A DNA stretch of 63,481 bases, the filler included. It is 6 parts of 6 records of this genome, joined end to end, with 100 filler letters (N's around TTAATTAATTAA, not from the genome) between each part and the next. Parts side by side here need not be neighbours in the genome. Positions count along the whole stretch, not along the records: positions 13,483 to 28,156 come from SRR31156797_36893; 5 more parts are not named here. One strand, given 5' to 3'. The notes beneath the pieces are model-generated. The model was not told where the DNA came from. It saw only the letters and a program-made list of their open reading frames with translations, and did no database searches. Numbering within the stretch: position 1 is the first letter of the stretch; each line of letters opens with the position of its first letter. Shown here piece after piece: positions 13,629 to 34,872 of the stretch. The position numbers and the translations under genes were made by a program.

Positions 13629-13660
13629 GGGTAGCAATGGGGGTAGCAGCGAGGGTAGCA
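13629..13660 (+). repeat. Three GGGTAGCA direct repeats, 12-bp period (candidate integrase arm sites)
   Basis: Copies at 13629, 13641 and 13653 between the att core and the int start. Confidence 0.6.
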
Positions 13661-14764
13661 ATGAAAAGGAAGAAAAGTAAGTTCACCGGCGTGTACATGC
13701 GTGAGTCCAAAGACCGCAGATACAAGGGCAAGCCGGACATCTGTTTTGACGTAACTTTCAAAGAAGGATCACGCAAGCTCTGGCAGAAGGTCGGCTGGAG
13801 ATCAGAAGGGATCACTGCCGCCTACGCTTCCAAAGTCCGCGCTGAAATAATGCGCAAAGTCCGGCTGGGCATGGACGTCTCAACACCGAAGCCCATGACC
13901 TTCGGGCAGGCCTTTAAAGAATATGAAGAAAATCACCTGACCAGTCTCAAAAGCGGCGACCGGGTGACACGGCTGTATAATGCCAGACTAAAAGACGAAT
14001 TTGAGAACATAAAACTTAAAGACATCAGCACCATCATGCTGGAGAAATATAAAAACAGGCTGCTGGCTGAAGGACTGGCTCCGGCCACGGCAACACACTG
14101 CCTCGCAATCTTCAGGTCGGTCTTTAAGAAAATGGTTTCGTGGGGGAAATACAAAGGCGCGGTTCCCACAGATCAAATCGCCATGCCCAAAAAGGACAAC
14201 CGCCGCTTTCGTTTCCTCAAAAAAAGCGAAGCTGATGAATTGCTCAGCTCACTGCGGGCCAGAAGCGAAGACACCTACCTTATGGCACTGGCCAGCCTGC
14301 ACACCGGCATGCGCTTCGGAGAGATTGCCAGCCTGCGGGCAGAACACATAAGCCTGAGAGACGGCATGATCCGCATTGTTGATGGCAAGGGCGAAAGTTC
14401 CCGGACAGTCTTCATGACTACGGAGCTGCGCTACCAGCTCAGTCAAAGACACCTCAAAGCCGGAGAACTCATCTTCCCCAACCGGGACGGCAAAATCCGG
14501 CCCATGATATCAAAGAGCTTTCCGCGCACCGTGAAAGCCTTGGGGCTAAATGACGGCATAGCAGACAAGCGTGACCACGTTGTCTTTCACTCCCTGCGCC
14601 ACACCTTCGCTTCATGGCTGGTCCAGAACGGGACGCCTCTCTACACCGTGAGCGAACTTCTGGGACATTCTTCTCTGGAAATGACGCAACGGTATTCACA
14701 TCTGGCACCGGAAGTGCTCAAGGCTGCGGCTGCTTCTTTTGATCGGATTGTTGGGAATGGGTAA
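13661..14764 (+). CDS. Tyrosine recombinase/integrase
   Basis: HTGMRFGEI (R), DGKG (K), FHSLRHTFASW (HxxR), LGHSSLEMTQRYSH (H, Y). Confidence 0.95.
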   Translation: MKRKKSKFTGVYMRESKDRRYKGKPDICFDVTFKEGSRKLWQKVGWRSEGITAAYASKVRAEIMRKVRLGMDVSTPKPMTFGQAFKEYEENHLTSLKSGDRVTRLYNARLKDEFENIKLKDISTIMLEKYKNRLLAEGLAPATATHCLAIFRSVFKKMVSWGKYKGAVPTDQIAMPKKDNRRFRFLKKSEADELLSSLRARSEDTYLMALASLHTGMRFGEIASLRAEHISLRDGMIRIVDGKGESSRTVFMTTELRYQLSQRHLKAGELIFPNRDGKIRPMISKSFPRTVKALGLNDGIADKRDHVVFHSLRHTFASWLVQNGTPLYTVSELLGHSSLEMTQRYSHLAPEVLKAAAASFDRIVGNG

Positions 14765-14794
14765 ATAAAAAAAACAATTGTGATTCAAAATAAG

Positions 14795-14834
14795 CAATGG
14801 ATGGTCCACAAATAACTTTGTAGGCCATCCATTG
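14795..14834. terminator. Stem-loop after integrase
   Basis: caatggatggtccacaaa/tttgtaggccatccattg imperfect inverted repeat. Confidence 0.5.
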
Positions 14835-15205
14835 TCATCAACCCAACTTGTTGTTCATAAAATCTATTTTTTGAACATCAAAAACATTTATCCGCCATTC
14901 ATGAACATCAAAAAACTTCACGCCCCTCGGCGATGTTCAAAAGTTCCCTAAAAACATAAATCGCTGCACTTCTTCCGCTGGCTGCGCGCAACTCTCTAAA
15001 CATACCGCGCTCATTTAAAATAGACAAAATCCTGCGCCCAGTAGAGACAGATACATTAGGAATAGGCGATCTGGTTTAGAAAAAATCTATTTAGCACACC
15101 CTAACCATATCTATAGGGATAAAAATAAACCAAGTCCGACCAGCAAAATTTATTTACTCAAAATCATTATTCAGCAAGAATAGCTTTATCAGGAAGATTA
15201 AAACG

Positions 15206-15808
15206 ATGGACAACACAAATAAAAGCTTCTTTCATTCCGGCCTCTCTAACATGACCAAAAACCGGGCAATAGTGTTGCGGTTGGCGCAACAATACATCAA
15301 CGGCTTAATGGCCCCGTCAGCCACCTTGCTGGAATTGCAGCACCTCATGTATTTTATGCAGGAGGCAGGTAAAAAGTTAGAACTCAATTTTCACCAAGGG
15401 ATCTACGGTCCCTATGTAGATAATTTGCACTATCTGCTCAAGCAAATGGACTGCACCGTCACTACCGGGAACAGTGAGGACAACACAGCCAAAGAATCCA
15501 TTGAGTTCCACAAGACTGACAGCAACGATGCACTGACTTTTCTCAAAAAACACGAACAAACGCTATCCAACGTGGATAGAGTCGGTGATCTGATCGCCGG
15601 TTTTGAAACTCCTTACGGCATGGAAGTTCTTGCGACAGTGCATTGGCTTGTCTCCAAGGAAAACGCCAAGAATGTGGATGAAGTCTATTCCGGTGTACAA
15701 AACTGGAATGCCCGAAAGGCTAAAATGATTCAGCGAAGGCATGTAGAGATTGCTTACAACGCTCTTGCCAATAAAGAATGGATACAACCAGATCAACCGC
15801 CAATCTAA
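15206..15808 (+). CDS. DarG antitoxin C-terminal-domain-like protein lacking the macrodomain
   Basis: TLLELQHLMYFMQEAG..L.L.F..G.YGPY..NL and LIAGFETPYGMEVLATVHW match the recalled C-terminal half of DarG proteins. Confidence 0.72.
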   Translation: MDNTNKSFFHSGLSNMTKNRAIVLRLAQQYINGLMAPSATLLELQHLMYFMQEAGKKLELNFHQGIYGPYVDNLHYLLKQMDCTVTTGNSEDNTAKESIEFHKTDSNDALTFLKKHEQTLSNVDRVGDLIAGFETPYGMEVLATVHWLVSKENAKNVDEVYSGVQNWNARKAKMIQRRHVEIAYNALANKEWIQPDQPPI

Positions 15809-16083
15809 AAAACTTCCACCGAATTATCCTTAACGTACTGGACCAAATCCACCCTTCTGTACACGATCCTGCGACCAAGAGTGGAAAATCGCGGGCCTTC
15901 TCCATTACTGCGCCAGTGGTCCAGCGTATTCTTTTTCACTGTTAGAAAATCAGCGGCTTCTTGAACTGTAAGTGTCTCTTTCCGATTTAAAATTTCCAGC
16001 TCTACGACCGGCTTAAAAGCTTCTTCAATAGCCAGTCGAATGTTCTTCATATTTTTCTCTGAAATATCTTTTTCCAAAATCAC
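15805..16083 (-). CDS. Excisionase-like HTH protein
   Basis: LTVQEAADFLTVKKNTLDHWRSNGEGPRF..LGRRIVYRRVDL (HTH_17/Xis pattern). Confidence 0.85.
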   Translation of the reverse strand: MILEKDISEKNMKNIRLAIEEAFKPVVELEILNRKETLTVQEAADFLTVKKNTLDHWRSNGEGPRFSTLGRRIVYRRVDLVQYVKDNSVEVF

Positions 16084-16128
16084 TATCTAATTCTCCAAGC
16101 TTATTTCGTATTCCGACTCAACAAATCT

Positions 16129-16555
16129 TTGCTAATTTAGCAAGAATCTTTTACAAGCTCAAGAAAAAGATCGGCCCGTAGAATCAGTTTTGGATAGACA
16201 TCTATTTCAAAAGGCTAATTAGCGAAGTCTCTCTTGGACACGAAAAAAGAGGCTGGCAACATCCATCCTCAACACGCAAGCAGCTCGGACAGCTTCTGAA
16301 ACAGGCAAGCTCTGAGGTTTGCCAGTCGGGGAACACTCCCTGATTTTCCACCACTTAGACGGGGCAGTCTTTGTGTCGCCGTACATCAATCGTGCAAATT
16401 GCGTATGAGAAATCCCCTTCTCTACATATAGGCTTACAATCTCAGCCACCAAAGCCCGCTCAAATTCATTCCCATTATTTTCCATCATTCCTGACCATCT
16501 TAGTTAAAGATATTTCTTTGCTAAATTAGCGTTGACTAAAAATACTAATTTAGCA
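16129..16555. promoter_or_regulatory. Repeated palindromic operator GCTAAWTTAGC
   Basis: TTGCTAATTTAGCAA 16129-16143, GCTAAATTAGC 16520-16530, ACTAATTTAGCA 16544-16555; the last two flank a TTGACT -35 box. Confidence 0.6.
16219..16488 (-). CDS. Small XRE-like DNA-binding regulator
   Basis: EKGISHTQFARLMY HTH-like segment; divergent from traK. Confidence 0.6.
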   Translation of the reverse strand: MMENNGNEFERALVAEIVSLYVEKGISHTQFARLMYGDTKTAPSKWWKIRECSPTGKPQSLPVSEAVRAACVLRMDVASLFFRVQERLR

Positions 16556-16635
16556 TAAACCAACTCCATGTCAATCAGTCCAAACACACACCCAAACTAA
16601 ACGAGCAAAGGCTCCTTGAATTAATCAAGGTCACA

Positions 16636-16914
16636 ATGAAAAAGAAAAAAGGTTTCGCAAAAATTGAATTCATCGCCAATCTTGAGGAAATAAAAGCTCT
16701 CCACAAAAGCGGCTTTAATAAAAAAATGATTCACGAGCACTTGCTTGGAAAAGGCAAAATAACAATGAGTTACGCAATTTTTTGTTCATACACCTTTGAC
16801 GGGGGTCGTCGAAAAAAACAAAGCAAACCCAAACGCCCTGCCCTCACACAGGAAGACAGGCCTTTCGTACACAAGAGCATCATAACCAAAGAAGATTTGG
16901 ATGAGTTGATTTAG
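16636..16914 (+). CDS. traK: TraK-family (IncP-type) oriT-binding protein
   Basis: AKIEFIANLEEIKAL..GF.KKMIHEHL..KGKITMSYAIFCSY pattern; relaxosome context. Confidence 0.65.
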   Translation: MKKKKGFAKIEFIANLEEIKALHKSGFNKKMIHEHLLGKGKITMSYAIFCSYTFDGGRRKKQSKPKRPALTQEDRPFVHKSIITKEDLDELI

Positions 16915-16974
16915 AAATGCCTTCTTGGCAGCACCCCAAGGAAATCCCCTAAACCTTTAGCAGCACTTAATTTT

Positions 16975-18534
16975 ATGACTTCAGAGGAACACAAATGCCC
17001 CTCCCGTAAACCGGACAATTGCGACGATAAGCAGCAATTTCAAACGAGTGCGGGTTATTCACGGGTACTTATCCGGCTCAAGTTGAACAAATTCTACAGA
17101 TCCCTTTCATACACAGCAAAAAACATAATCGCAGTTCTCATCCAGTCCGCACCGGCAATGGAAAAACCGTTTCCCATTGTTATTTCCAACCTTCAGCACG
17201 CAGCCGGATGCAGCAAAGCAAGCATTTTGCGCCATATCCCTAAAGGAGAACAAGCCGGACTTTATGAACGCAAAAACCATGACGCAGGGCGCAAGCACGG
17301 AAGCATCGTCACGCTGAACAAAGAACTCTGCGAGCGATTCCTTGAACTTCATTCACAGGAATACGGCCAATCCGCCAACACCAATAATGAATCATATTTC
17401 ATTCTATTTGATGGCAGCAAAGATCAATGCGGCCAAGCCTTGGATCTGGAAAACAAAACCGACCTATTTTTCTCCAGTTTATCCAATACGGAGAAACGTA
17501 TATTCGCTGTAATTTCAAAGCTTGCAGAAGATGTCCCTAGCGGGAAAATCCATCTTATAATTAAAGACGTTGCCGAACAGACATCTTGCAGTGAAGTGAC
17601 CGCCCGTCGGACAGTTAAGCGCGGCCAAGAAAGCGGCCTTTACGCCAAGAGACAACATGAACGCGGCCCCCGTTTCGGTGTAATCCTCAAGCTAAATGTT
17701 AAGCCCATGGAACGCATGAAAGAACTGCTGCAAACGTTCCCGGCAAAAGCTGATCAGTATCAATCCGACATAACCGAACATGATCGGATTCATGAGCAAA
17801 ATGAAACTGATCATGCAACCAGACTTGATCGGAATCATTTCAGCAGTGATCCTGCGCAGGCAAAACACCCCCTCAACCCTTGTCAGTCAGGGGGTGGCAG
17901 CAATTCAGTTCCGCGCTCTGACACTCAAAACGATCGGTATCACGAGCATCTTCTATTAGATAGACAGATAGAAAATCTATCTAACGCTGAAGAAAAATTC
18001 AGTGCGCGAAGGTTGCTGGAGATCAATGCGGAGGATTTCGAAATCCACTGGCCCAGACTCCACGAACACAAATTTGGGCCAAATCAGATTCGCCAGATTG
18101 TGAACCACCGGGTTGCAGGGGGCGAAACTCTTCTCGACATCAAGAACTCACTCTATGCCGCTGAATGGGAATTAGAACGCGAAACCTTTCCCAAAAACCG
18201 CAAAGGCCCGTGCAATTATCTTTTCGCCACCCTGAAGGACACAGGCACATGGCGCAGGCCGGTCGGCTTTCTCTCGCCCAACGAACAGGCACTTGCCAAC
18301 GCAAAAAAAGAAAAGGGCGTAGTCCGTGCGCTTGCAGAACAGAAAAAACAGCAGGCAAAAAAGGAGACACAAGCAAAATCAGACAAAAAGTTTGAAGCAT
18401 GGCTCGCCACACAGACACCTGAAGCACTGGCGGCGATTGATGCGCGATGTACCGTGCCGCCCAGCACCGAGGAGTCCAGACGTAGATGGCGGAGGGTTTA
18501 CTGGGGGAAAAATATTTATCGGGAGGAGGCGTAA
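16975..18534 (+). CDS. Putative replication initiator with two tandem winged-helix repeats
   Basis: Two similar units (F..SLS.T.K.I.AV...CS.....R....G...GLY.....G..G....LN), a low-complexity linker containing DNA repeats, and a helical C-terminus. Confidence 0.55.
   Translation: MTSEEHKCPSRKPDNCDDKQQFQTSAGYSRVLIRLKLNKFYRSLSYTAKNIIAVLIQSAPAMEKPFPIVISNLQHAAGCSKASILRHIPKGEQAGLYERKNHDAGRKHGSIVTLNKELCERFLELHSQEYGQSANTNNESYFILFDGSKDQCGQALDLENKTDLFFSSLSNTEKRIFAVISKLAEDVPSGKIHLIIKDVAEQTSCSEVTARRTVKRGQESGLYAKRQHERGPRFGVILKLNVKPMERMKELLQTFPAKADQYQSDITEHDRIHEQNETDHATRLDRNHFSSDPAQAKHPLNPCQSGGGSNSVPRSDTQNDRYHEHLLLDRQIENLSNAEEKFSARRLLEINAEDFEIHWPRLHEHKFGPNQIRQIVNHRVAGGETLLDIKNSLYAAEWELERETFPKNRKGPCNYLFATLKDTGTWRRPVGFLSPNEQALANAKKEKGVVRALAEQKKQQAKKETQAKSDKKFEAWLATQTPEALAAIDARCTVPPSTEESRRRWRRVYWGKNIYREEA
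17751..17984 (+). repeat. Iteron-like YGATCRGWWTCA repeats inside the rep-like gene
   Basis: Copies at 17751, 17781, 17826 and 17931, followed by the inverted repeat ttagatag...ctatctaa (17956-17984). Confidence 0.55.
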
Positions 18535-18700
18535 GTAGTCATCCCTATAGCCCTACCCCCATATTTCCATTTTCCGGCCCTGAATTTTGATACTTCTTGA
18601 TAAATTTTGATTCACTTTGAAATTATTCTCAAAGATCGTCAATTATGCGCAAAGATTGCCAAACACCTTCCGCAAGCACTAGAAATATCATACTTTATCA

Positions 18701-18813
18701 CGGAATCCGAAGGCAGGACAGGTAAGGTAGTGCCACTTTTTTCAAAGTGTTCTCCCTTACGTCCTGCGCAGCCTGAGCGACGATTAACTTATTCACCTTC
18801 GGTTCAACGCAAA
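18701..18813 (+). other. RP4-like oriT / traJ-II-like structured element, copy 1 (predicted nick on minus strand between 18713 and 18714)
   Basis: Minus strand CTACCTTACCTGTCCTG^CC resembles RP4 nic CTACTTCACCTATCCTG^CC; lies upstream of rha-traJ-traI. Confidence 0.75.
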
Positions 18814-18881
18814 TTGTTTAAGAAATTGAGACCAGCTCAATTTTGAGCTGACATTAACTGCAAACAAAACAGGATAAATCA

Positions 18882-19697
18882 ATGACCCAAAAAGCTAATA
18901 AAAATAATGAAATGTCGGATGCCGTCGAATTGGTTATGGAAAACGATAAGCCGATGGTTTCATCTTTGGTAGTGGCTGAGTTGTTTGAAAAACGGCATCA
19001 CAACGTTCTCAAATCAATAAGCGATCTAGAAATTCCCGATTCATTTAGAGCCCTGAATTTTCAGGCGTCCTCGTATGCAAGTAAACAGAACAAGAAAATG
19101 CCATCTTTCAACATGACCCGTGATGGATTTTCCCTTTTAGCCATGGGATTTACCGGCAAGAAAGCCACAGAATGGAAAATCAAATTCCTTGAAGCTTTCA
19201 ATGCCATGGAAAGGAAGCTGACGATTCCACAGGTTGAGGCAAATTTTCAAATTAAGAAGGCAACTCCAGAAGCAATCAAATCCTTTGAAGGGTTTGCCCG
19301 CTATTGGTGTTATCTTGAAAAATTTAGTTGGGAACAAGGCAAACGACAGATTGAAGCTGCAATCAGAGTTCCCGACATTTATGAGATGGACGCGTTAGCA
19401 TTGAACAGTGCTTGGACCTATATTACTCTTTGCACAAGAATCGTTCCGCCTAAAATGCGTGGGTTGAATGTCTGTTCTGAAGAAGAGCTGTCTCCGGTTA
19501 TAGGGCTGTTGGATTACTGGTCATACAGCACCAGCAATTCAAAAGATGAGCTGGAATCCAATTTCTGCAAGCGCATGGGAATTGATGCGCTGGAACAATT
19601 GCCAAAGTCATATCTTCCGCATGCAGTGAGTCTTGCTTGGGAAAACATTCATTTTGAAACAGGTAAATGTCGTGCCGTCAAAGAAGCGAATCATTAA
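18882..19697 (+). CDS. Rha family phage-type regulatory protein with duplicated C-terminal module
   Basis: SSLVVAELFEKRHHNVLKSI...MTRDGFSLLAMGFTGKKATEWKIKFLEAFNAME is the Rha signature. Confidence 0.88.
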   Translation: MTQKANKNNEMSDAVELVMENDKPMVSSLVVAELFEKRHHNVLKSISDLEIPDSFRALNFQASSYASKQNKKMPSFNMTRDGFSLLAMGFTGKKATEWKIKFLEAFNAMERKLTIPQVEANFQIKKATPEAIKSFEGFARYWCYLEKFSWEQGKRQIEAAIRVPDIYEMDALALNSAWTYITLCTRIVPPKMRGLNVCSEEELSPVIGLLDYWSYSTSNSKDELESNFCKRMGIDALEQLPKSYLPHAVSLAWENIHFETGKCRAVKEANH

Positions 19698-19989
19698 AAC
19701 CTACGTTTCAGACGATGAGTACATAGAGATCAGCGAGACTGCGCAGCAGTGCAGTCTTTCTCTGTCTGCTTTTGTTAAGGCCGTATCGTTGGGACATGAA
19801 ATTAGAAGCAGCACCGACCAGCAGGCCCGCCGGGAACTTTTGAAGCTCAATGCAGATCAGGGCCGCTTGGGCGGCTTGTTAAAAATGATGATTCTGGACG
19901 ATGACACGAATCGAGTAAAAGCGGAGAGGCTGCTTGAGGACATTCGTCGGCTTCAGGGCAGACTAATGCAGAAGGTGAGAACCGTATGA
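19672..19989 (+). CDS. traJ: TraJ/MobC-type relaxosome accessory protein (RHH); GTG start inferred
   Basis: SLSAFVKAVSLGHEI...RELLKLNADQGRLGGLLK resembles RP4 TraJ; ATGA overlap with the relaxase. Confidence 0.82.
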   Translation: MPSKKRIIKTYVSDDEYIEISETAQQCSLSLSAFVKAVSLGHEIRSSTDQQARRELLKLNADQGRLGGLLKMMILDDDTNRVKAERLLEDIRRLQGRLMQKVRTV

Positions 19990-21611
19990 TCAGCCGAAGG
20001 ATTGCTTGCAAGCCCCAGAACGACAATTACCGCCGACTCGCAGTATACATTGCCGATGCCAAGCACAAAGGCGAAAAGAGTTTGATGTCGTGGTGTGCTG
20101 GCTGCTGGGCCGGTGATGATTACGAACTGGCCATTCAAGAAGTGCTCGATACTCAGGATCTGAATAAGCGCACCCGCAAGGAAAAGACTTACCATCTAAT
20201 CGTGTCCTTCAGACCGGAAGATGAGACCACCCTTACACCGGAAACTTACAAAGAGATTGAGCAGGGGTTCTCCAAGGCTCTGGGCTTTGAAGAACACCAG
20301 CGGCATTGCGGGGTTCATAAAAACACGAACAACCTGCACATGCATATCGCCTACAACATGATTCACCCGGAGACTTTGACCCGTCACGAACCTTACCGTG
20401 ATTTCTACAAGCGCGATCAGTTGCACCGCGAACTGGAGCAGAAGTACGGCTTGAGAGTTGATAACGGCAGGCAAAAGGAAGGCAACCCCAAACGCACAAA
20501 TGATCGAGCTGCCAGCTTCGAGGCTCATTCCGGCCAGCAGTCTTTTGATTCATATATAAAGGAACGCAAGGATTTCATTTTGGAGTCCTTGCGCTCCGCG
20601 CAAAACTGGCAATCCTTTCATAAAGCCTTGGCGCAAATCGGCATCGAGATCCGGCTGCGCGGCAATGGATGCATCCTTAAAGACCTTCATTCCAAAACGG
20701 CCATCAAAGCCAGCAGCCTCGACCGAGATTTCTCCAAGCCCAAACTGGAAGCCAAGCTTGGCAAATTTCAAAAGCCCTTCGATTTCAAGGTGGAAGAAAA
20801 AGAGCGATACATCTCAAGGCCGCTGCACAAATATCGCGGAGAACTATACGCCGAGTACCGCACGGCCATCGAAGCCAGAAAGAAAGCCTACGAGACCCTG
20901 AAAGAAGATCAGGATGCCCGCTGGAAGAAAATCACTACATTCTGGGATGATAAATTAAAGAGAACAAAAAATGACTCCCAGCTCCGCCCCAAAGACAAGG
21001 CCCGCTTGATTGCTTTGGCGATAGATAGAAAAAGCCACGAGGTCGAATTATTCAAAAAGGAAATAGCCGAAAAGCGTGCAGTCCTGCGTGAACAAACACC
21101 ATTCAGCAGATGGAACGATTTTCTGAAATGGAAGGCCGAAAACGGGGATGAAGTTGCGCTCAAAATTCTGCGGTCGAAGAAAGTATCCATCACATCTGTT
21201 CCTAAGGCGGAAGAAAGCAGTCGTAAAACCAAGCTTTCAACTTTGAAGCGTAAACAAGGCCAAATCAGAAGGGATTCCACCTTCGTCTGGAAAGACAAAC
21301 GCAGGCTGCTGTCCATTTCCAAAATGCTGCAATTGCAAGCTAAGGAATCCAACCGAAAGACTGGCGGCGATGAACAAAGTGTCATGGCCGGAATGACTTG
21401 GCGTGTGGATTCGTCCGGCAATGTCCTATACACGCTGAAGAACGGGGCTATGGTTAAAGACAATGGCGATAAGATTTTCTTCAGCGTGGGTGATTCCAGT
21501 GCGGAGCGGGTTGCGCTGGAGCTGGGGCGGATGATGTTCGGGATGAAGGCTAAGGTGTCCGGGAATGTGATTAAGCGGGGGTGGAAGAAAATTGCGTTGA
21601 ACCGAAGGTGA
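19986..21611 (+). CDS. traI: MOBP (TraI-type) conjugative relaxase
   Basis: RLAVYIAD (catalytic Tyr), TYHLIVSF, HKNTNNLHMHIAYN 3H motif. Confidence 0.92.
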   Translation: MISRRIACKPQNDNYRRLAVYIADAKHKGEKSLMSWCAGCWAGDDYELAIQEVLDTQDLNKRTRKEKTYHLIVSFRPEDETTLTPETYKEIEQGFSKALGFEEHQRHCGVHKNTNNLHMHIAYNMIHPETLTRHEPYRDFYKRDQLHRELEQKYGLRVDNGRQKEGNPKRTNDRAASFEAHSGQQSFDSYIKERKDFILESLRSAQNWQSFHKALAQIGIEIRLRGNGCILKDLHSKTAIKASSLDRDFSKPKLEAKLGKFQKPFDFKVEEKERYISRPLHKYRGELYAEYRTAIEARKKAYETLKEDQDARWKKITTFWDDKLKRTKNDSQLRPKDKARLIALAIDRKSHEVELFKKEIAEKRAVLREQTPFSRWNDFLKWKAENGDEVALKILRSKKVSITSVPKAEESSRKTKLSTLKRKQGQIRRDSTFVWKDKRRLLSISKMLQLQAKESNRKTGGDEQSVMAGMTWRVDSSGNVLYTLKNGAMVKDNGDKIFFSVGDSSAERVALELGRMMFGMKAKVSGNVIKRGWKKIALNRR

Positions 21612-21704
21612 ATAAGCCGCTCTCAGCCTCAAGGCTAAGCAGGACGTAAGGGACACCACGTTGAAAAAGTGGGCCTACCTTACCTGTCCTGCCTTCGGAC
21701 TCCG
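21592..21704 (-). other. RP4-like oriT / traJ-II-like element, copy 2, inverted relative to copy 1 (predicted nick on plus strand between 21691 and 21692)
   Basis: Plus strand GTGGGCCTACCTTACCTGTCCTG^CC; its reverse complement aligns with 18701-18813 over about 110 nt. Confidence 0.75.
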
Positions 21705-21916
21705 GGAGAGTATAATGGATTTTGCTAGATTCGGGCAAGCGTTCAAAAAAAATATACAATAATCTTGAATAGTAAATTATATTAAATAAAAATAAAGCAT
21801 AATTAAGCATTGCAAATATTTATTTTACTTTCACGATGACAAACTTGCTAATCTTGACATGATTTGATTTCTATAGCACTAAACTTTCATCATCGAAACA
21901 GGGACGACCCTGTTGG

Positions 21917-21976
21917 TAGCCAATTACCGAGGACGACCTCATAAAAGATCGTCCTCGGTAATTGGCTATTTTTTTT
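21917..21976 (+). terminator. Strong intrinsic terminator upstream of nrfH
   Basis: 20-bp perfect inverted repeat tagccaattaccgaggacga/tcgtcctcggtaattggcta followed by T8. Confidence 0.8.
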
Positions 21977-22088
21977 GGGGTTTGACTGAAGTGTAATCTC
22001 ATACTGTTCGCAGTAAGACTCATGAAAGTATCTAAAAAAGCACTTTAGTGTGTACCAAGTCAACATTTAGTACTAAAGGAGTGAAAAT

Positions 22089-22613
22089 GTGGTTTCAAAA
22101 ATATTGAGTGCTTTCTCATTAGGCTTTGTAACTATAGCAATATGTATTGGATTGTATGTTGCCTACTCATCAAAGGCCTTAACATACCTTTCTGGCGACT
22201 CAAAATATTGCATAAACTGCCATGCAATGAACACACAATACGCAACTTGGAAAAAAAGTTCACATGCATTAAATGCAGAATGTGTTGATTGCCACCTTCC
22301 GCATGACAATATAATTTTAAAATATATGGTGAAGGCTGAGATAGGTGCTCATGATGTAGTTGCATTTACTAAAAATGATTATAAAAATTCGATATCAATT
22401 ACTAAGAAAAGTGAAGCTAGAGTCCAGAACAACTGTATCAGGTGTCATGGCAAAGCTGTTGAACGATTAATGTTTAATAGCATTGGTCAATGCGAAGATG
22501 AGACTGTCTCTATGGGGAGAAAGTGCTGGAGTTGTCACAATCGCATCGCGCACGGAAAGACTAGGGGTTTAGCTACAATGTCCAATGACCTTACAGTAAA
22601 AGAGGGAAACTAA
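22089..22613 (+). CDS. nrfH: Tetraheme membrane-anchored quinol dehydrogenase, NrfH family
   Basis: N-terminal TM; CINCH, CVDCH, CIRCH, CWSCH; directly upstream of an NrfA homolog. Confidence 0.9.
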   Translation: MVSKILSAFSLGFVTIAICIGLYVAYSSKALTYLSGDSKYCINCHAMNTQYATWKKSSHALNAECVDCHLPHDNIILKYMVKAEIGAHDVVAFTKNDYKNSISITKKSEARVQNNCIRCHGKAVERLMFNSIGQCEDETVSMGRKCWSCHNRIAHGKTRGLATMSNDLTVKEGN

Positions 22614-22614
22614 A

Positions 22615-24159
22615 ATGAAAAAAGGCATCATCATTATAGTCAGTTCAATTGCAATTGCCGTTGCGCTGCTGTGGTTGGCTTTAGATATCAACACCAAAAA
22701 AATTGAAAAAGTAGCGCTGACAACCGTAGAAGGAGAACCTTCAGATCCGGCAAAAAGTTCTACGTGGAAACAGTTATATCCACGACAATATGAAACGTGG
22801 GCGAGCACCAAGAAGAACTCGGAATGGGAGGATATGATTGAAACAACTCCTGAGCAAGTTATTATGCGGGCTGACCCATATAGCCCAACAGGCCCAGAGC
22901 TCTTAAATATTCGTGGGCACTACTATTCCGTGATAGACTTTCTTACTGCAGATGGTTCAGGAATCCCTTCTAAAAATAGAAAAGACGACACAACCTCTAG
23001 GTGCTTGCGGTGTCACACCTCAAACGCGCGTGGATTGATGGAGCGTGATGGTAAAATGGAATTTCTTTCTAGCTCCTGGACCAAATATGGCAATGAAGCA
23101 TTGAACCCTATTGGATGTGTCAACTGTCATGATCCCAAGACAGCAAAATTGCGAATGGGCCCCACCGGAGTAGACGAAATGCTTACTGCGGCAGGATTAC
23201 CGGATTTCGACCATTCTTCACATCAAGAAAAAAGAGCCTTGATTTGTGCTCAATGTCATTTTGAAGCATACACTGAAAAAATTAGCTGGAAAGATAAAAA
23301 AGGCAACAGCAGAGAGGCTACCGTAACGAGAACGCCATGGAAGAATGGGTTTACTTTGGACGACATGGAGCGCTTTTACGATGATGGAAGCAACTTCTCG
23401 TCCGGCAAGCCTTACTACGATTTCATTCACCCAATATCAAAAACTCCAATAATATTCTCAGAACATCCAGACTATGAGCTTTTCAAGCAAGGCACACATG
23501 GGAAAAATGGGCTTGCTTGTGCAGATTGCCATATGCCGTACAAACAAGAAGGCGGAGTGAAGTTTACAGATCATAAAATTGGATCTCCTCTGGATACGAT
23601 AGATAGAACATGTCAAACCTGTCATCGCAAGAAAGAACAATATTTTAAAGATGCTGTAGCGGAAAAGAGAAAACGTAAAGAGGTATTGGCTAACATCGCC
23701 ATGAAGAACCTCACTAAAGCACACTTAGAAGCGGGTAAAGCTTGGGAAGCGGGAGCGACAGAAGAGGAAATGGCTCCAGTCTTGGCGGATATAAGGAGCT
23801 CTTTCTGGAAATGGAATTCAGTCGCAAGGGCTGCCTATTTCCATGCTCCTGAACAGACATTGAAAGCCTTGGCTGATTCAAACAACAAAGCCCAAAGCGC
23901 CAGATTGGCTTTGTCAAGCATCCTTGTCAAACATGGGATCACCAACTACATCGCACCTGAATTTAAAACTAAAGAAGAGGCACTTTCTATCCTGAATATC
24001 CCTAATCGGAGGGAATATATGCAGGAAAAATGCAAATTCTATGAAACGCTGGCTAAAAAATGGATTGAAGAAGGCAAAGCCAACGGAACATACGATGAGG
24101 ATATCAGCTATCCAGTGAACATGGAAAGCCGTTATACAAAGGAATGCCAGCAGAGATAA
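22615..24159 (+). CDS. Pentaheme cytochrome c552 (NrfA-fold) with non-canonical active site
   Basis: Five CXXCH motifs (CLRCH, CVNCH, CAQCH, CADCH, CQTCH); scaffold motifs RGHYY, HQEKR.L.CAQCH, ISKTP, CADCHMPY.QEG, FHAPE as in Wolinella-type NrfA. Confidence 0.88.
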   Translation: MKKGIIIIVSSIAIAVALLWLALDINTKKIEKVALTTVEGEPSDPAKSSTWKQLYPRQYETWASTKKNSEWEDMIETTPEQVIMRADPYSPTGPELLNIRGHYYSVIDFLTADGSGIPSKNRKDDTTSRCLRCHTSNARGLMERDGKMEFLSSSWTKYGNEALNPIGCVNCHDPKTAKLRMGPTGVDEMLTAAGLPDFDHSSHQEKRALICAQCHFEAYTEKISWKDKKGNSREATVTRTPWKNGFTLDDMERFYDDGSNFSSGKPYYDFIHPISKTPIIFSEHPDYELFKQGTHGKNGLACADCHMPYKQEGGVKFTDHKIGSPLDTIDRTCQTCHRKKEQYFKDAVAEKRKRKEVLANIAMKNLTKAHLEAGKAWEAGATEEEMAPVLADIRSSFWKWNSVARAAYFHAPEQTLKALADSNNKAQSARLALSSILVKHGITNYIAPEFKTKEEALSILNIPNRREYMQEKCKFYETLAKKWIEEGKANGTYDEDISYPVNMESRYTKECQQR

Positions 24160-24181
24160 CTAGTCAAAGAAATAATAATAT

Positions 24182-24214
24182 GAGGGCCTATCCAAGCATA
24201 TGAGATAGGCCCTC
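24182..24214 (+). other. Intergenic stem-loop after the nrfA-like gene
   Basis: gagggcctatc/gataggccctc 11-bp stem with no U-tract. Confidence 0.5.
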
Positions 24215-24279
24215 GCTATAACAAAATCAGCAAGTTGGTGACAGATCGAAAGTGATCATGCAACGAATAGGAGAGTGTA

Positions 24280-24774
24280 GTGTTTAGAGAAATGCGTCGA
24301 AAAAAACAAATGTTGTCAGTAGAAGAATGTGTTGCTGTACTTGAAAGAGGGACTTCGGGTGTTTTAGCAGTATTGGGAGATGAAAATCACCCATACGCAG
24401 TTCCGCTTAGTTACGTATATCACAAATCAAAAATATTCTTTCACTGTGCAAAGTATGGCCATAAATTAGATGCTATTTCAAATAGCAATAAATCTTCATT
24501 TTGCGTGATAGATAAAGATAAGATCATTCCCGATGAGTACACTACATATTTTCGCAGTGTTATTGCTTTTGGAAAAACACGTATCCTTCAAGATAAATTA
24601 GAAAAAAGAAATGCGTTGAAAAAACTAGCCAAACGCTATTCACCAAAACATGAAAAAGGAAGTTTAGATGAGATTGATAAACTCTTTGAAAAGGTTTTTG
24701 TTTTAGAATTAAGCATAAAACATATGACAGGCAAACAAGCAATTGAATTGCTAAATAATAATTCATCAAAATAA
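24280..24774 (+). CDS. Nim-like 5-nitroimidazole reductase family protein (PNPOx fold)
   Basis: MFREMRRKKQ.L, PYAVPLSYVY, HCAKYGHKLDAI, EYTTYFRSVIAFGK closely follow recalled Bacteroides Nim proteins. Confidence 0.8.
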   Translation: MFREMRRKKQMLSVEECVAVLERGTSGVLAVLGDENHPYAVPLSYVYHKSKIFFHCAKYGHKLDAISNSNKSSFCVIDKDKIIPDEYTTYFRSVIAFGKTRILQDKLEKRNALKKLAKRYSPKHEKGSLDEIDKLFEKVFVLELSIKHMTGKQAIELLNNNSSK

Positions 24775-24821
24775 GCTAGAACCACTACATTCTATTTGTA
24801 AAAATATAACTGGATGTTAAA

Positions 24822-26273
24822 ATGCACCATATTGATTTTCCTACTTATAGAGGCAGCATGGAATATTTTTGTCTTGGCTGCAACTCCCGCTTTCCAATCG
24901 ATGAGTTGTACTATACCTGCCCAAAATGCGGCGGGGTCTTTTTGTTAGAAGACAATTCCTTTGATTTGCTAAAAAGATACCCTGGTCAAAGGTGGCGTGA
25001 CCTGTTTGATTCAAGGGCAATGACTAAAGAGACGACTCTACGCGGTATTTTTCGATTCTATGAACTCATGGCTCCAGTACTCGATCAACAAGATATTGTT
25101 TACTTAGGAGAAGGACATTCCCCTATCGTAGATTTTTCCCATTCGTTACGCAGCGAGTTGGATGGCCAGATGGGTGCTTATAAAAACGAAGGACAGAACC
25201 CCAGCGCATCTTTCAAAGATCGTGGAATGGCTTGTGCGTTCAGTTTTTTGAACAACCTTAGTCGAACCAAAAGTTTTGACAATATTCTAGCTGTTTGCGC
25301 CTCTACTGGTGACACCAGCGCGGCTGCGGCTTTATATGCTTCTTACGCGGGAAAACGCGTCAAATCTGTGGTTCTTTTACCCCAAGGCAAAGTCACGCCG
25401 CAGCAGTTAGCTCAGCCCTTGGGAAGCGGAGCTCAAGTTCTTGAAATTCCCGGTTTTTTTGATGACTGCATGAACGTTGTTGAGTACCTTGCTGATAACT
25501 ATCACGTTGCCCTTCTCAACTCCAAAAACGCATGGCGAATCCTCGGGCAAGAGTCTTACGCCTTTGAAATCGCCCAATGGTACGGCTGGGACTTAGAGGG
25601 CAAATGTGTATTTATTCCAATTGGCAATGCCGGCAATATTACCGCTATTATGGCCGGTTTTTTGAAGCTTTACCATTTAGATATTATTAATAAACTCCCT
25701 AGAATTTTTGGAGTGCAATCCCACCATGCCGATCCGGTCTACCGCTATTATGCCGTCGATGACCCTAAAGAACGTCATTTTAAGCCGGTGAAAGTTCAAC
25801 CTAGTGTGGCCCAGGCCGCCATGATAGGTAAGCCGGTATCCTTTCCCCGCGTGCGATATTTCGTTGAGCAATATGAGGCTATTGGCGGCAAACAGTCTTT
25901 TCAAGTTGTTCAAGTTGCAGAACAGGACATCATGGATAGTATGCTCCAGGCCAATCGTAATGGACATATAGTGTGCACCCAGGGGGGGGAATGTTTGGCT
26001 GGCCTGAAACGCGCACGGCAACTTGGGATAATCGACGAAAAAGAAACCGCAATCCTTGACTCAACAGCACACATGCTTAAGTTTATTGGGTTCCAAGACA
26101 TGTATTTTAGCAACACTTTCCCGTTTGAGTATGGAGTTACCCCTGATGCACAAAAAGCTAACACCCCTCATCTGATTATTGAAGAGCGGGAAAAGACTTT
26201 TTTATCTGCGGAAGAATACACAATAAAAACGGCTGAGAATATTGTTACAATGCTTGGACTAGCTAAAAAATAG
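24822..26273 (+). CDS. thrC: Threonine synthase
   Basis: KNEGQNPSASFKDRGM (PLP lysine), CASTGDTSAA, PIGNAGN; N-terminal CxxC..CxxC. Confidence 0.9.
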   Translation: MHHIDFPTYRGSMEYFCLGCNSRFPIDELYYTCPKCGGVFLLEDNSFDLLKRYPGQRWRDLFDSRAMTKETTLRGIFRFYELMAPVLDQQDIVYLGEGHSPIVDFSHSLRSELDGQMGAYKNEGQNPSASFKDRGMACAFSFLNNLSRTKSFDNILAVCASTGDTSAAAALYASYAGKRVKSVVLLPQGKVTPQQLAQPLGSGAQVLEIPGFFDDCMNVVEYLADNYHVALLNSKNAWRILGQESYAFEIAQWYGWDLEGKCVFIPIGNAGNITAIMAGFLKLYHLDIINKLPRIFGVQSHHADPVYRYYAVDDPKERHFKPVKVQPSVAQAAMIGKPVSFPRVRYFVEQYEAIGGKQSFQVVQVAEQDIMDSMLQANRNGHIVCTQGGECLAGLKRARQLGIIDEKETAILDSTAHMLKFIGFQDMYFSNTFPFEYGVTPDAQKANTPHLIIEEREKTFLSAEEYTIKTAENIVTMLGLAKK

Positions 26274-26320
26274 CAAAGTGAGGAAACGCAAGAGATAAAA
26301 CACTATAGTTTCCTTCTCTA

Positions 26321-27001
26321 TCAGAACAAAGCGGTTAATACAACTGCATAGACCAAAGCAGGGAGAAAGTTGGCAAGATTGATCTCCGTCAAGTGTAACA
26401 GATTAACTCCGATCCCCATGACAAGCACCCCGCCGCACGCAGTAACCTGTATAATCATAGGATCTGAAAATGACTGCTGAAAGCCTTCTGCACCAAGAGT
26501 CAAACTTCCTTGGTACAACAAAACGGGAAGAAATGAATATATAACTCCTGCCCCATATGAGGCAGCCAGCGCGATGGAAGCAAAACCATCAAGAATGGAC
26601 TTTGTGTAAAGTATGGTTGGATCACCATTTATACCTTCCTCAAGCGAACCGATAATAGCCATGGCCCCAACACAAAAGGTAAGCGATGCCATAATAAATC
26701 CGTCAGTAAAGTATTCATTCTTGGATTTAATAACCTTTTTGAACTCATTGCCTATTTTCTCGAACAAGGTATCGAGCTGCAAAATCTCGCCAGTGACACC
26801 ACCAACCATAATGGCAAAAATAACGGCTAAAATATCTTCGTTCTTCAGTGCCATCTGGATGCCTATCACTAGCATGCAAAGGCCAAGACCCTGAAACACA
26901 ATACCTTTAAATCGTTGAGAAAATCTAGATTGCAGCCCGCAGCCGATGACTGAGCCCCCGATTATAGCAAAAACATTGACTATGGTTCCAGTTGGAATCA
27001 T
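26321..27001 (-). CDS. DUF554/YdfK family membrane protein
   Basis: GTIVNVFAIIGGS, FCVGAMAIIGSLEEG, LYTKSILDG. Confidence 0.85.
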   Translation of the reverse strand: MIPTGTIVNVFAIIGGSVIGCGLQSRFSQRFKGIVFQGLGLCMLVIGIQMALKNEDILAVIFAIMVGGVTGEILQLDTLFEKIGNEFKKVIKSKNEYFTDGFIMASLTFCVGAMAIIGSLEEGINGDPTILYTKSILDGFASIALAASYGAGVIYSFLPVLLYQGSLTLGAEGFQQSFSDPMIIQVTACGGVLVMGIGVNLLHLTEINLANFLPALVYAVVLTALF

Positions 27002-27159
27002 TACTTATCTCCTAATAATTTTTATACGGACTAGTGTCTTCGACATCCACGGATAATTTCTTCTAAGTATATTCCTAAATTAGCTGAAATGTCCTTGCAA
27101 TGTGCCAATAAATTAACAAACGAAATGCAACAATCTTTCAAAATAACACAAAAAAATAA

Positions 27160-27633
27160 ATGAATGGTTCAATGATGACTTTGGACGATAAAGATAAAGT
27201 GCTTTTACGCCTGTTGCAAAACGACGGCAGGATGAGCAATGCCAAAATGGCAGAACACCTATCAATAAGTGAATCCTCGTGCTGGCGCAGGCTGAAACGC
27301 CTTTTGGACAATGGCTTTATAATAGGTTTTCAAGCCGTGCTAGATAGAAAGGCAACAGGATTCGACGTACTTTCTTTTGTGCAAATCAGTTGCAGTCAAC
27401 ATTCAGAGGAAGCGACAGCCCAGTTCAAACGAATTATAAGGGCATCGCCGAATGTTCTCTCCTGCCATAACACAACAGGGGATGACGACTTCCTGCTTCA
27501 AGTAGTTGCAAAAGACTTAGATGATTACAACGATTTCGTTGAAGGAGTACTCCGAAAGATACCTGGAGTGGTAAACCTTCGTTCCAACATATCGCTACAA
27601 GAAGTCAAATTACCCCACCTGTTGCCGTTATAA
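27160..27633 (+). CDS. Lrp/AsnC family regulator
   Basis: LDDKDKVLLRLLQNDGRMSNAKMAEHL.IS...CWRRLKRL; TGDDDFLLQV. Confidence 0.92.
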   Translation: MNGSMMTLDDKDKVLLRLLQNDGRMSNAKMAEHLSISESSCWRRLKRLLDNGFIIGFQAVLDRKATGFDVLSFVQISCSQHSEEATAQFKRIIRASPNVLSCHNTTGDDDFLLQVVAKDLDDYNDFVEGVLRKIPGVVNLRSNISLQEVKLPHLLPL

Positions 27634-27891
27634 TGACGCAATAAATATCACAGTACACTTCAAGTCACCAAAAAGTTTTTGATATGTCAAATTACACTCT
27701 CTTACAGTCTACAGAACAGCTCGTTTGACTTTAGTCGGCCCATTATAAGTAAAACAGCTGACGTTTTTTTTGTACAAACAGTTTTGAATGTTTAGTCGAT
27801 TTCTTTTGCTATAGAGCTTTGAAAGGATACAAATTTCAGGTAAACTTATATTTATCTGTGTTGAATTTCACATACAAAGGGATAGTTTTTT

Positions 27892-28156
27892 ATGAGAAAG
27901 TTCTATGAAGGTAAATTAGTGCGGAAGGCTATTGTTTTGGTTCTTGCTTTTAGCTTTGCAGGTGTGCTTGTTGTCTTTTATTTTTATTTCAATTCGTTGG
28001 ATGATTTAGCTACTGAAAACATGCGCCAAAGAGTTATGGTTGCCTTAAATGTTGAAGCTAGTATTCAGCAGGAAATCCTTGAAGAATATACATTTTGGGA
28101 CGAAGCATATGAAAATTGCATTGTTAATGTAAATAATGACTGGATTTCTCTTAATA
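27892..28156 (+). CDS. Membrane sensor protein N-terminus (CHASE4-like), truncated by contig edge
   Basis: TM helix followed by EYTFWDEAYE. Confidence 0.55.
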
Positions 28157-28256
28157 NNNNNNNNNNNNNNNNNNNNNNNNNNNNNNNNNNNNNNNNNNNN
28201 TTAATTAATTAANNNNNNNNNNNNNNNNNNNNNNNNNNNNNNNNNNNNNNNNNNNN
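28157..28256. other. Artificial contig spacer
   Basis: N-run with TTAATTAATTAA. Confidence 0.97.
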
Positions 28257-30944: not shown

Positions 30945-31168
30945 TTTTAAAATTTCCTAGTATTTTAGCTCTTATTATATCTTTTTACAAAATAAACCTT
31001 ATGTCAATAGATAAAAATATCGTAAACTTTTTTATATAGTATAATTTAGTAACATAAAATAAAATTCTTTAGAATATTATTATACTATATAAAAGTTTAC
31101 AGCTAGTTAACATTTTAAATGCGTTATTTTTTAGTTATTTTTGTTATAAAGTTATGAATAGAAAGTTT

Positions 31169-31633
31169 TTAGTTTTTAGTTTGTAACTTGTCTTTTTTTG
31201 ATTGTTTATAACTAATATAAAGAATCAAAACGACTGCAATATCTATTAAGACATCAGCTAGATTAAATATCGCAAAGTCAAATCCACAATGCCAGTATAC
31301 ATAATCAACCACTCCACCATGGATAAATCGATCATAAATATTGCTAATTCCACCAGCAAACAATAATGCAACAGGTATATAGTAAGAGTTAAAAAGTTCT
31401 TTATTGATGAAAAGATAGATCACGCCAATACATAATACAATAATCTGAATATATTTTAAATGCTCTTCTAAAAAAGAGAACATTGAAAAGGCTACACCAT
31501 AGTTATATGCTAAAACTAAAGAGATACACTCCCCTTTAGCCTCAAAGCCATCTACAAAAATTGCTTTTATGTATTGGTCAATAAAAAAAAGCACTATGAA
31601 AAGTGCTATAAAAGTTATACTTTTCTTTAACAT
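31169..31633 (-). CDS. lspA: Lipoprotein signal peptidase II
   Basis: [33 protein letters not shown]. Confidence 0.95.
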
Positions 31634-32964
31634 AATTTGTTTTTAATAAATAATTGTAATTTATCCATACAATCATCCACTAGTTTTTTCTCTTTACCTT
31701 CTAATAAAAGTCGAATCTTATTTTCAGTTCCTGAATATCTTATAAGATCTCTTAGTCCTTTTTTTCTAAACTCAACTAAAAGCTCATCTAAACCTTCAAT
31801 CTCATCTAAAGGTTTTTTCTCTTCAACAATTAAGTTTTTTAAAACCTGAGGATAAAGGTCAAAAGGATTTAATGCCTTACTAGCTTTTTGTTTGGTTGAA
31901 ACCAATAATGCTAAGACTTGTAATGCTGAAGCTAAACCATCCCCAGTTTTAGCAACATCTGAAAAGATTATATGACCACTTTGTTCTCCTCCAAAATTGA
32001 TCCCTTTTTCTTTCATAATCTCTAAAACATATTTATCCCCAACATTTGATCTATAAAGCTCAATGCCATTCTTTAATAAATAGTCTTCTAAAGCTTGATT
32101 ACTCATCACTGTAGCAACACAACCACCTTGTAATTGATCTTGTTGTTTAAGATATACAGCAAGTGCACCTATAAGTTTATCCCCATCGATCACTTCACCA
32201 TTCTCATCCACTACAACTAATCGATCTGCATCTCCATCTAATGCAATTCCAATATCTGCTCGATACTGAACTACAAGCTTTCCAAGCTCTTTTGGATAGA
32301 GTGCTCCACAGTTTTCATTGATATTATATCCATTTGGTTCATCATTTACCGTAATTACATCCGCATCAAGCTCTTCTAAAATAGTAGGACCCACTTTATA
32401 CCCAGCCCCATTAGCACAATCAAGAACAATTCGCATATCACTTAGACTAAGCTCTCTTGGGAAAGAGCTTTTTATAGAGACGATATATCGCCCTATCACA
32501 TCATTGATCCTTTTTGCTTTTCCTATTTCATTATGAGTACATTGTGACTTTTTTATAAGTTCATCATTTTCAAAAATCTCTTCGATCTCTTTTTCAATAC
32601 TAGCAGAGAGCTTGTTTCCATATGAGTCAAAAAATTTTACGCCATTATCTTCATAGGCATTATGAGAAGCACTTAGCATGATTCCAGCATCACAACGCAT
32701 AGTTTCAGTGAGATATGCAATTGCAGGAGTTGGCATAGGACCTATTTGTATCACATCATATCCCACTGAAGTTAAACCACTTACAAGAGCATTTTCAATC
32801 ATATAGCCACTTCGTCTCGTGTCTTTTCCAACCAAAATCTTTTTTGTTCGTGAGTTCTTTTTAAAATAGATCCCAGCAGCTTGGGCAAGCCTTAAAGCAG
32901 TCATAGCATCAAGAAAAGTTCCAGCTTCTCCCCTTACGCCATCAGTACCAAAAAGTTTTCCCAT
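31627..32964 (-). CDS. glmM: Phosphoglucosamine mutase
   Basis: [33 protein letters not shown]. Confidence 0.96.
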
Positions 32965-34855: not shown

Positions 34856-34872
34856 AATAGAATAAAAGATAA

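Follow-up and report, generated by a model that had tools for sequence, protein, structure and literature searches.

A clade of NrfA-fold pentaheme cytochromes with a rewritten nitrite-reducing site

The nrfA gene serves as the marker for the dissimilatory reduction of nitrate to ammonium (DNRA). The stretch of DNA analysed here, 63,481 nucleotides in length and referred to below as the window, carries a gene, nrfA*, whose predicted product passes the usual tests for nrfA (Pfam match, five hemes, conserved His) yet lacks two of the three catalytic residues. The locus therefore raises the question of whether such a protein still reduces nitrite, reduces another compound, carries electrons without catalysis of its own, or is decaying. 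Phylogeny places nrfA* in a monophyletic, uncharacterised offshoot of epsilon/delta-type NrfA, which we name NrfA*, and we think it probable that NrfA* is a periplasmic reductase linked to menaquinol whose substrate is not nitrite.

An intact scaffold around a changed heme-1 pocket

The best match of nrfA* among PDB sequences was the NrfA of Wolinella succinogenes (1fs9; HMMER, E 3.6e-129, query residues 5-507 on chain residues 5-501), and the Pfam family PF02335 (Cytochrom_C552) matched at 379.9 bits against a cut-off of 24.1. An AlphaFold2 model made on a 69-sequence alignment of the NrfA family had a predicted local distance difference test score (pLDDT) of 93.9; its best Foldseek matches were 1fs7 from W. 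succinogenes (template modelling (TM) scores 0.85/0.93) and 1qdb from Sulfurospirillum deleyianum (root-mean-square deviation 1.8 Å). The protein has five heme motifs, CLRCH130, CVNCH168, CAQCH211, CADCH302 and CQTCH333, with CXXCK absent, and keeps the distal histidines of hemes 2-5 (H102, H295, H320 and H410), which are invariant or nearly so in the 69-sequence alignment. Its partner is intact as well: the nrfH open reading frame (ORF) scored 146.1 bits against TIGR03153 (cut-off 134.2) and encodes an N-terminal membrane helix and four CXXCH, the first of them within the CXXCHXM site that serves as the criterion for NrfH (PMC8840924). An earlier note, made from the letters of the window, had described heme motifs, distal histidines and nrfH partner as complete, and these results bear it out.

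The residues around heme 1 are another matter. In the HMMER alignment, numbering is the same in nrfA* and W. succinogenes NrfA up to about residue 254. Going from W. succinogenes to nrfA*, the heme-1 motif CWTCK becomes CLRCH, replacing the proximal Lys134 by His134; NINTLRTG becomes DFLTADGSG, with Gly114 for the catalytic Arg114; CHVEYYF becomes CHFEAYT, with Ala218 for Tyr218 and with Glu217 and Tyr219 unchanged; and KAQH becomes FSEH, so that Lys274 is Phe281 and Gln276 is Glu283, with His277 retained as His284. The WAGYPFSKDYN segment is replaced by RADPYSPTGPELLN, two residues longer, and a second gap, of 6 residues, opens in the W. succinogenes row at about query residues 258-264. Every substitution that the earlier note had listed at the catalytic positions is present in this alignment to 1fs9.

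The same note had taken the Lys and Gln of the calcium site to be lost. KAQH is indeed FSEH, and at the calcium-site motif (E-Y...K-x-Q-H or K-x-R-H) nrfA* combines that FSEH with a retained Glu217. In the W. succinogenes structure, Lys274 and Tyr218 presumably bind calcium through their backbone carbonyls. Since Glu217 is kept, Gln276 is replaced by Glu, which could still bind calcium, and the Lys and Tyr ligands would be backbone carbonyls, the site may survive in nrfA*, and the claim of its loss was overstated; Glu217 is, however, not conserved clade-wide.

The closest characterised system is the NrfHA type of W. succinogenes and S. deleyianum (1FS7, 1QDB), which resembles nrfA* in fold (TM 0.85-0.93), five hemes, distal histidines, the His277 equivalent, Glu217, an N-terminal signal and an upstream nrfH. 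It differs at the proximal Lys, at Arg114, Tyr218, Lys274 and Gln276, in the FSKDYN loop, which in nrfA* gives way to a PTGP-containing sequence, in lacking the extra Cys473 and Cys511 of nrfA*, and in that nrfA* falls below the NCBIfam equivalog cut-off. Saghai et al. (PMC10716430) define NrfA by five heme c sites and a His between sites 3 and 4; nrfA* has both, and the NrfA* clade would pass. The catalytic Arg, the catalytic Tyr and the proximal Lys are missing, and the CXXCH alternative does not accommodate nrfA* either, as the catalytic triad is not retained.

A monophyletic clade under constraint

We sorted by motif the 120 best matches from a search of 5.8 billion proteins and defined the clade by its rewritten site, which was found in 19 of them; the other 101 were canonical (CxxCK, Arg, E-Y-[YH]-F, K-x-Q-H). 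When all motifs were combined in one table, CXXCH with neither Tyr218 nor Lys274 was seen in 29 of 29 clade rows versus 0 of 28 close canonical rows. Taken singly, Arg114 was found in each of the 28 close canonical rows, compared with 2 of 19 clade rows, and Tyr218, present in all canonical and distant rows, was in none of the 19. The Arg114 position is occupied by Asp in 8 of the 19 clade rows and the Gln276 position mostly by Glu, and Glu217 is gone from about half of the clade. All heme motifs and distal-ligand residues are nonetheless retained across clade sequences that are 38-57% identical, and one member (P0030) is a fusion of NrfH and NrfA*. Newly fixed across the clade are Gly93, Arg129, His134, Ser152, Cys473 and Cys511 alone; none of these is an obvious candidate for a sixth (distal) heme ligand, and a new His, Met, Lys or Cys fit for that role is not fixed in the clade. 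The Cys473/Cys511 pair occurs in 29 of 29 clade rows wherever the sequence reaches that far. It also occurs in P0015 (CWTCK/KAQH), the sole canonical sequence sampled that has it; P0015 is a member of the sister subclade, and the pair may thus be older than the rewriting of the active site.

In a careful IQ-TREE analysis (49 rows, LG+G4) the clade had a support of 100/100 and a stem length of 0.40. It was sister (100/98) to a canonical Campylobacterota-type subclade, with which it has a 7-residue NFPDGKP-like insertion in common, and both were nested among CXXCK NrfAs; the sequences closest to it in the tree are canonical NrfAs of the W. succinogenes and S. deleyianum type. A 78-row quick tree agreed with this placement. 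Because the clade is nested among CXXCK NrfAs, its ancestor was an ordinary Lys-ligated NrfA, and because the CXXCH-type representatives P0143 and P0153 fall in a distant outgroup, far from the clade, the change from Lys to His is secondary, as is the loss of Arg and Tyr; it arose inside the CXXCK lineage, independently of the known CXXCH clade. Read from the alignment and tree, the clade stem is where the nitrite apparatus was dismantled: His took the place of the proximal Lys, Gly, Asp, Ile or another residue that of Arg114, Ala, Ser or Gly that of Tyr218 and a hydrophobic residue that of Lys274, and the FSKDYN loop was replaced.

The CXXCH-type NrfAs already known, from Campylobacter jejuni and Anaeromyxobacter (named the 'CXXCH clade' by Saghai et al. 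2023, PMC10716430), are like NrfA* in being all-CXXCH and in having an NrfH partner. They are unlike it in that Arg, Tyr and His are all retained and nitrite is reduced (PMC12285233, PMC13562315). The earlier note had stated that CXXCH variants retain this triad, which held for four of the five that we sampled (P0126, P0143, P0153 and P0182, with Arg, E-Y-Y and K/R-x-Q-H) and not for P0181. That sequence, a distant CXXCH-type relative, is without the Arg, has SVAD for KxQH and keeps E-Y-Y; it may represent another independent loss of the nitrite site. According to Soares et al. (PMC9250108), all NrfAs and octaheme nitrite reductases (ONRs) keep Lys, Tyr, His and Arg, save Lys-less variants. 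In the literature searched we found no NrfA clade described as being without Arg and Tyr, although supplementary trees or alignments may contain such sequences.

The exact motif set of the window's protein is not a property of the whole clade. Of the set CXXCH, FEAY and FSEH, about which the earlier note had asked, CXXCH is universal and FEAY is confined to the query subgroup: HFEAYT with xxEH is restricted to the query, P0001, P0003 and P0010, where FSEH recurs in P0001 and is MPEH in P0003 and P0010. Other subgroups, each internally conserved, have HVLSYT/LAEH, HYEGYT/WSIH or HYEDYR/WxEH.

The clade is under purifying selection, as seen in the one subgroup with DNA, and often occurs together with canonical NrfA. 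In that subgroup (L001, L102 and L106, 80-85% identical in amino acids), which is not the window gene's own lineage, the ratio of nonsynonymous to synonymous substitution rates (dN/dS, NG86) was 0.058-0.091 at a dS of 1.3-2.1, which is near saturation. With a monophyletic clade, with heme motifs and distal histidines kept and with 19 homologs in the best 120 matches, these values support the earlier note's view of a conserved variant; the picture that it had named as fatal to its proposal, no homologs and a dN/dS near 1, is not what we observed. Site rates inside the clade are unevenly spread over the pocket. The slowest position considered is His134 (1st percentile), followed by the His277 equivalent (12th), Gly93 (13th) and Arg129 (22nd), with the equivalents of Tyr218 (62nd), Arg114 (76th) and Lys274 (91st) far behind; among the old catalytic positions, the distal His alone is still constrained.

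What NrfA* may do

Ten loci had readable flanks: six of Campylobacterota type, three of Parasutterella type and the window. nrfH adjoins nrfA* in the window and in L001, L102, L106, L110, L115 and L116. In these last six, which are the Campylobacterota-type loci reaching far enough downstream, the order is invariably nrfH, nrfA*, a dCache histidine kinase and an OmpR-type regulator. All six kinases contain [YF]xxxxRxWY, a Tyr 15 residues on and an Asp about 30 residues further, which matches the amino-acid-binding dCache motif set out by Gumerov et al. (PMC8915833). The kinase of L116 lies in two ORFs (10747-11868 and 11947-12795), and a LysE exporter gene follows the regulator in L001 and L116. 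Other neighbours vary. L001 has two SMR genes and a divergent nim-like gene 57% identical to the one in the window, versus 48% for NrfA* and 45% for NrfH between both loci; L116 (genome G721) has msrP-msrQ-like genes (Oxidored_molyb and Ferric_reduct; 6894-8353) directly upstream of nrfH-nrfA* on the same strand. As clues to the substrate, the nim-like, SMR and MsrPQ genes nearby point towards reactive compounds of N-O, O-O or N-Cl type, inconsistently across loci.

In the reading that we favour, NrfH would oxidise menaquinol in the membrane, and electrons would pass through hemes 5/4/3/2 to the His-ligated heme 1, whose distal pocket would have His284 as its sole constrained acid-base residue. 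The side-chain changes suggest the larger and less basic pocket proposed in the earlier note. Loss of the cationic Arg, often to Asp, and the change of Gln276 mostly to Glu speak against an oxyanion, nitrite included; with acidic or small residues gained, the site would reduce a small oxidant that is neutral or cationic. In the Campylobacterota branch, an amino-acid-like periplasmic ligand sensed by the adjacent dCache_1AA histidine kinase probably turns on expression. As all five sites are CXXCH, a dedicated CXXCK heme lyase would presumably not be needed, and such independence would ease transfer between hosts.

As to the substrate, we can offer guesses. N-O compounds come foremost among them, whether organic or inorganic (hydroxylamines, nitroso or nitro compounds, N-oxides), as a decidedly tentative choice; O-O or N-Cl oxidants (peroxide, chloramines) are an unlikely one, and sulfur species an outside chance. 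A fuller version of the proposal is speculative and, taken as a whole, unlikely: NrfH-NrfA* would be a new quinol-dependent periplasmic reductase system, induced through dCache_1AA, that acts on an organic oxidant of N-O, S-O or N-Cl type, amino-acid-like or otherwise (for instance methionine sulfoxide, chloramines, N-oxides, or organic compounds of the hydroxylamine, nitroso or nitro kind), and would work alongside Nim-like reductases in the cytoplasm or MsrPQ in the periplasm. Conceptual precedents for rebuilding the active-site heme on a common scaffold are octaheme MccA sulfite reductase, octaheme tetrathionate reductase, epsilon-Hao and the pentaheme MccSep polysulfide reductase (PMC13510729). 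NrfA* belongs to none of these families by sequence or fold (MccA and HAO structures gave TM scores of about 0.18-0.21 against the nrfA* model), and the clade is without a Cu-binding Cys pair, a Cys or Sec heme ligand or extra hemes; MccSep is set apart here by its description in PMC13510729, not by its sequence.

One alternative is that NrfA* is still a nitrite, NO or hydroxylamine reductase with a re-arranged pocket (His284, Tyr219, Arg86 or Arg129, and a calcium site of Glu217 and Glu283), perhaps an inefficient one serving detoxification. The change of proximal ligand is no obstacle to this, since Lys to His alone is tolerated and His-ligated NrfAs reduce nitrite well (PMC13562315); moreover, the query keeps the His277 equivalent, Glu217 and Tyr219, Arg86 and Arg129 are common in the clade, and the database name of every member is that of an ammonia-forming nitrite reductase. 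The second sphere argues the other way. No departure from Arg114 or Tyr218 occurs in the 28 close canonical rows, and the clade has lost Tyr218 from all and Arg114 from 17 of its 19 rows, in addition to Glu217 from about half. Single substitutions at Arg or Tyr cripple nitrite reduction: Tyr218Phe in W. succinogenes NrfA nearly abolishes it, with sulfite reduction persisting (PMC8840924), and R103Q, H257Q and Y206F each impair early steps of NrfA (PMC12498419). Canonical NrfA also coexists with NrfA* in two of the three genomes checked, and the NCBIfam equivalog cut-off is missed by a wide margin (160-290 bits). We regard a retained nitrite-type activity as quite unlikely.

Loss of catalysis altogether would explain part of the same evidence. 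If heme 1 were six-coordinate, for instance through His134 and His284, NrfA* would be an electron-transfer module only, a menaquinol-fed periplasmic hub supplying other reductases or acceptors. Heme 1 does have the standard CXXCH of electron-transfer hemes, and the former catalytic positions, apart from the His277 equivalent, no longer evolve slowly. Loci of Sutterellaceae type encode the protein alone, in line with the orphan NrfA without an adjacent partner described for Sutterella and Burkholderiales 1_1_47 (PMC4257093). Against such a hub, the clade as a whole has gained no His, Met, Lys or Cys suited to be a distal ligand, His284 is itself present in 17 of 19 sequences, and no candidate acceptor-protein gene is conserved beside nrfA*. 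A dedicated ligand-sensing two-component system next to the operon, as seen in 6 of 6 loci of Campylobacterota type, is, besides, the pattern of substrate-induced terminal reductases. A pure conduit thus seems unlikely to us, if a little less so than continued nitrite reduction. Integrase and relaxase genes alongside nrfA*, and a nonsense allele widespread in one gut lineage, would fit a decaying or non-functional paralog riding on a mobile element; the intact reading frame, the retention of every heme and distal-ligand residue at 38-57% identity, the low dN/dS of the L001/L102/L106 subgroup and the conserved synteny with nrfH and regulators make this very improbable.

Several observations weigh against a reductase of new specificity. 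The His277 equivalent is found in 17 of 19 clade sequences, with Tyr in P0002 and Asn in P0018. The Sutterella group (2 of 19) has an Arg aligned at position 114, beside a 10-residue deletion; in alignment A1, 14 of 18 clade rows have Arg86 where canonical sequences have Trp, and Tyr219 is still there, so that an Arg or Tyr from another backbone position (Arg86, Arg129, Tyr219) may compensate in the pocket. Average-to-fast rates at the old pocket positions fit relaxed constraint, with no heme-1 catalysis, as well as they fit diversified specificity, and the selection estimate has the subgroup scope and the near-saturated dS given above. The Parasutterella-type loci (L103, L109 and L111) have a divergent LysR gene and neither nrfH nor kinase nearby. 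Neighbours that hint at a substrate are inconsistent, with nim-like genes in the window and L001 and msrPQ in one of the ten loci. Finally, a gut metagenome contig (L105, 4485-6110) has an in-frame TGA in the clade gene (KQK*TDASG), and the 90% cluster of P0029 contains many half-length members (278 and 282 amino acids on 69 and 57 contigs); a nonsense allele is thus common in one gut lineage, and the gene is therefore dispensable there. A selenocysteine reading of this TGA was rejected, as the codon stands for a conserved Trp (TGG).

Distribution and the locus in the window

The clade is rare, yet horizontal transfer has carried it into different phyla. Among its members, those with a name are from Halodesulfovibrio aestuarii, Shewanella sp. 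FJAT-51649, Citrobacter koseri, Parasutterella, Sutterella sp. and Sulfurospirillum sp. UBA6810; the closest relative of the window's protein is a 93%-identical sequence with a name from H. aestuarii, and one 90% cluster of the clade holds 242 Parasutterella sequences. A clade-specific DNA pattern from the heme-1/heme-2 region matched the window and L001/L081 alone among 99 NrfA loci, found 12 further clade loci in metagenomes, and detected the clade in 3 of 401 sampled Campylobacterota genomes, two of which (G002 and G721, not G407) also have canonical NrfA. A scan of genome contigs with the clade alignment, which relies on motifs common with canonical NrfA, gave 79 canonical loci among the 80 matches listed, the other being L001. 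A protein search of 401 sampled Desulfovibrionaceae genomes returned no clade-level scores: 192 matched, the best at 418 bits and 43% identity, which is the canonical range, and all fifteen matches checked at the motif columns were canonical. In a plasmid collection, tblastn hit 20 records, all below 40% identity, those listed being annotated as nrfA or unannotated, and judged canonical by that identity. A search of 1.84 billion representatives gave four above 450 bits (P0004, P0010, P0023 and P0026) and did not extend the subgroups, and a search of the ESM Atlas yielded generic NrfA-named clusters only.

Every named member is labelled ammonia-forming cytochrome c nitrite reductase in the databases. 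The NCBIfam equivalog NF008339 (cut-off 595) separates the clade cleanly: the window's protein scored 415.4 bits and six other members 304-431, so that 7 of 7 fell short, by 160-290 bits, and 5 of 5 canonical controls passed at 605-707. Parasutterella and Sutterella are common human gut genera, and gut surveys list Parasutterella, by annotation, among genera with respiratory nitrate or nitrite reductase genes (NarG, NrfA, NapA; PMC12998184); mislabelling would inflate estimates of DNRA potential. If the fuller, unlikely version of the proposal were true, some of the 'nrfA' tallied by surveys of the gut and the environment would not stand for nitrite ammonification, and an unrecognised respiratory or detoxification pathway would be common to marine sulfate reducers, Shewanella, Sulfurospirillum, Citrobacter and the Sutterellaceae of the gut. 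The identity of the substrate could bring to light an electron acceptor or a route of detoxification new to anaerobes. The clade should interest those who study the nitrogen cycle as well as enzymologists of multiheme proteins, for whom it is a clean natural experiment in re-tooling, with wire and quinol partner kept and proximal ligand and second sphere replaced.

In the window, nrfH-nrfA* lies on a single contig together with an upstream mobile-element module (Table 1). The ATG of nrfA* is one base past the nrfH stop codon. The palindrome before nrfH is possibly a candidate operator, or the terminator of the upstream module. Downstream of nrfH-nrfA* are a nim-like gene of PF12900, a threonine-synthase-like gene, DUF554 and an AsnC-type regulator; the nim-like ORF is a member of PF12900 at 82 bits and is under the NimABCDEF equivalog cut-off (NF000261, 209.2 bits versus 260). 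The integrase and Rha-NikA-MobA look like an integrative mobilisable element adjoining nrfH-nrfA*, and adjacency suggests that the pair may be its cargo. A 24-nt direct repeat (14772 and 24753) was considered as an att pair and dropped, its 75% identity being too weak. By tblastn, no second NrfA-like sequence besides nrfA* was found in the 63-kb window.

Table 1. Positions of features on the nrfH-nrfA* contig, counted along the window
Feature	Position	Strand	Description
Contig with nrfH-nrfA*	13483-28156		
Mobile-element module	13637..21707	.	Upstream of nrfH-nrfA*, same contig
Tyrosine integrase	13637-14764		Start of contig; part of the module
DUF5338	16636-16914		Part of the module
Helix-turn-helix (HTH) protein	16975-18534		Part of the module
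Inverted repeats, ~120 nt	18698-18815 / 21589-21707		86-96% complementary; flank Rha-NikA-MobA
Rha	18882-19697		Part of the module
NikA	19633-19989		Part of the module
MobA/VirD2 relaxase	19986-21611		Part of the module
Palindrome	21917..21968	.	Near-perfect; arms of 23 nt with 96% complementarity around a 6-nt spacer; ~120 nt upstream of nrfH
nrfH	22089..22613	+	174 aa; tetraheme NapC/NirT-type membrane quinol dehydrogenase; first site CXXCHXM (CINCHAM)
nrfA*	22615..24159	+	514 aa; NrfA-fold pentaheme cytochrome c; five CXXCH; residues 1-24 N-terminal hydrophobic signal/anchor
nim-like Pyridox_ox_2 (PNPOx-fold) protein	24280..24774	+	164 aa; directly downstream of nrfA*, same strand

The window (positions 1-63481) consists of six contigs joined with paired 44-N spacers, with runs of N at 5568-5667, 13383-13482, 28157-28256, 34255-34354 and 40467-40566. 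G+C content differs between contigs, with about 0.50-0.55 at the upper end and 0.29-0.31 at the lower. Housekeeping genes (SecF, a phosphoglucosamine-mutase-like gene and a Na+/H+ antiporter) lie on the two AT-rich contigs (28257-40466), and the assembly therefore probably mixes two organisms. A CcmF homolog (50648-52546), followed by several small ORFs (the whole spanning 50648-55336), represents a gene of system I cytochrome c maturation; it bears on NrfA* in that an all-CXXCH protein would need no dedicated CXXCK lyase.

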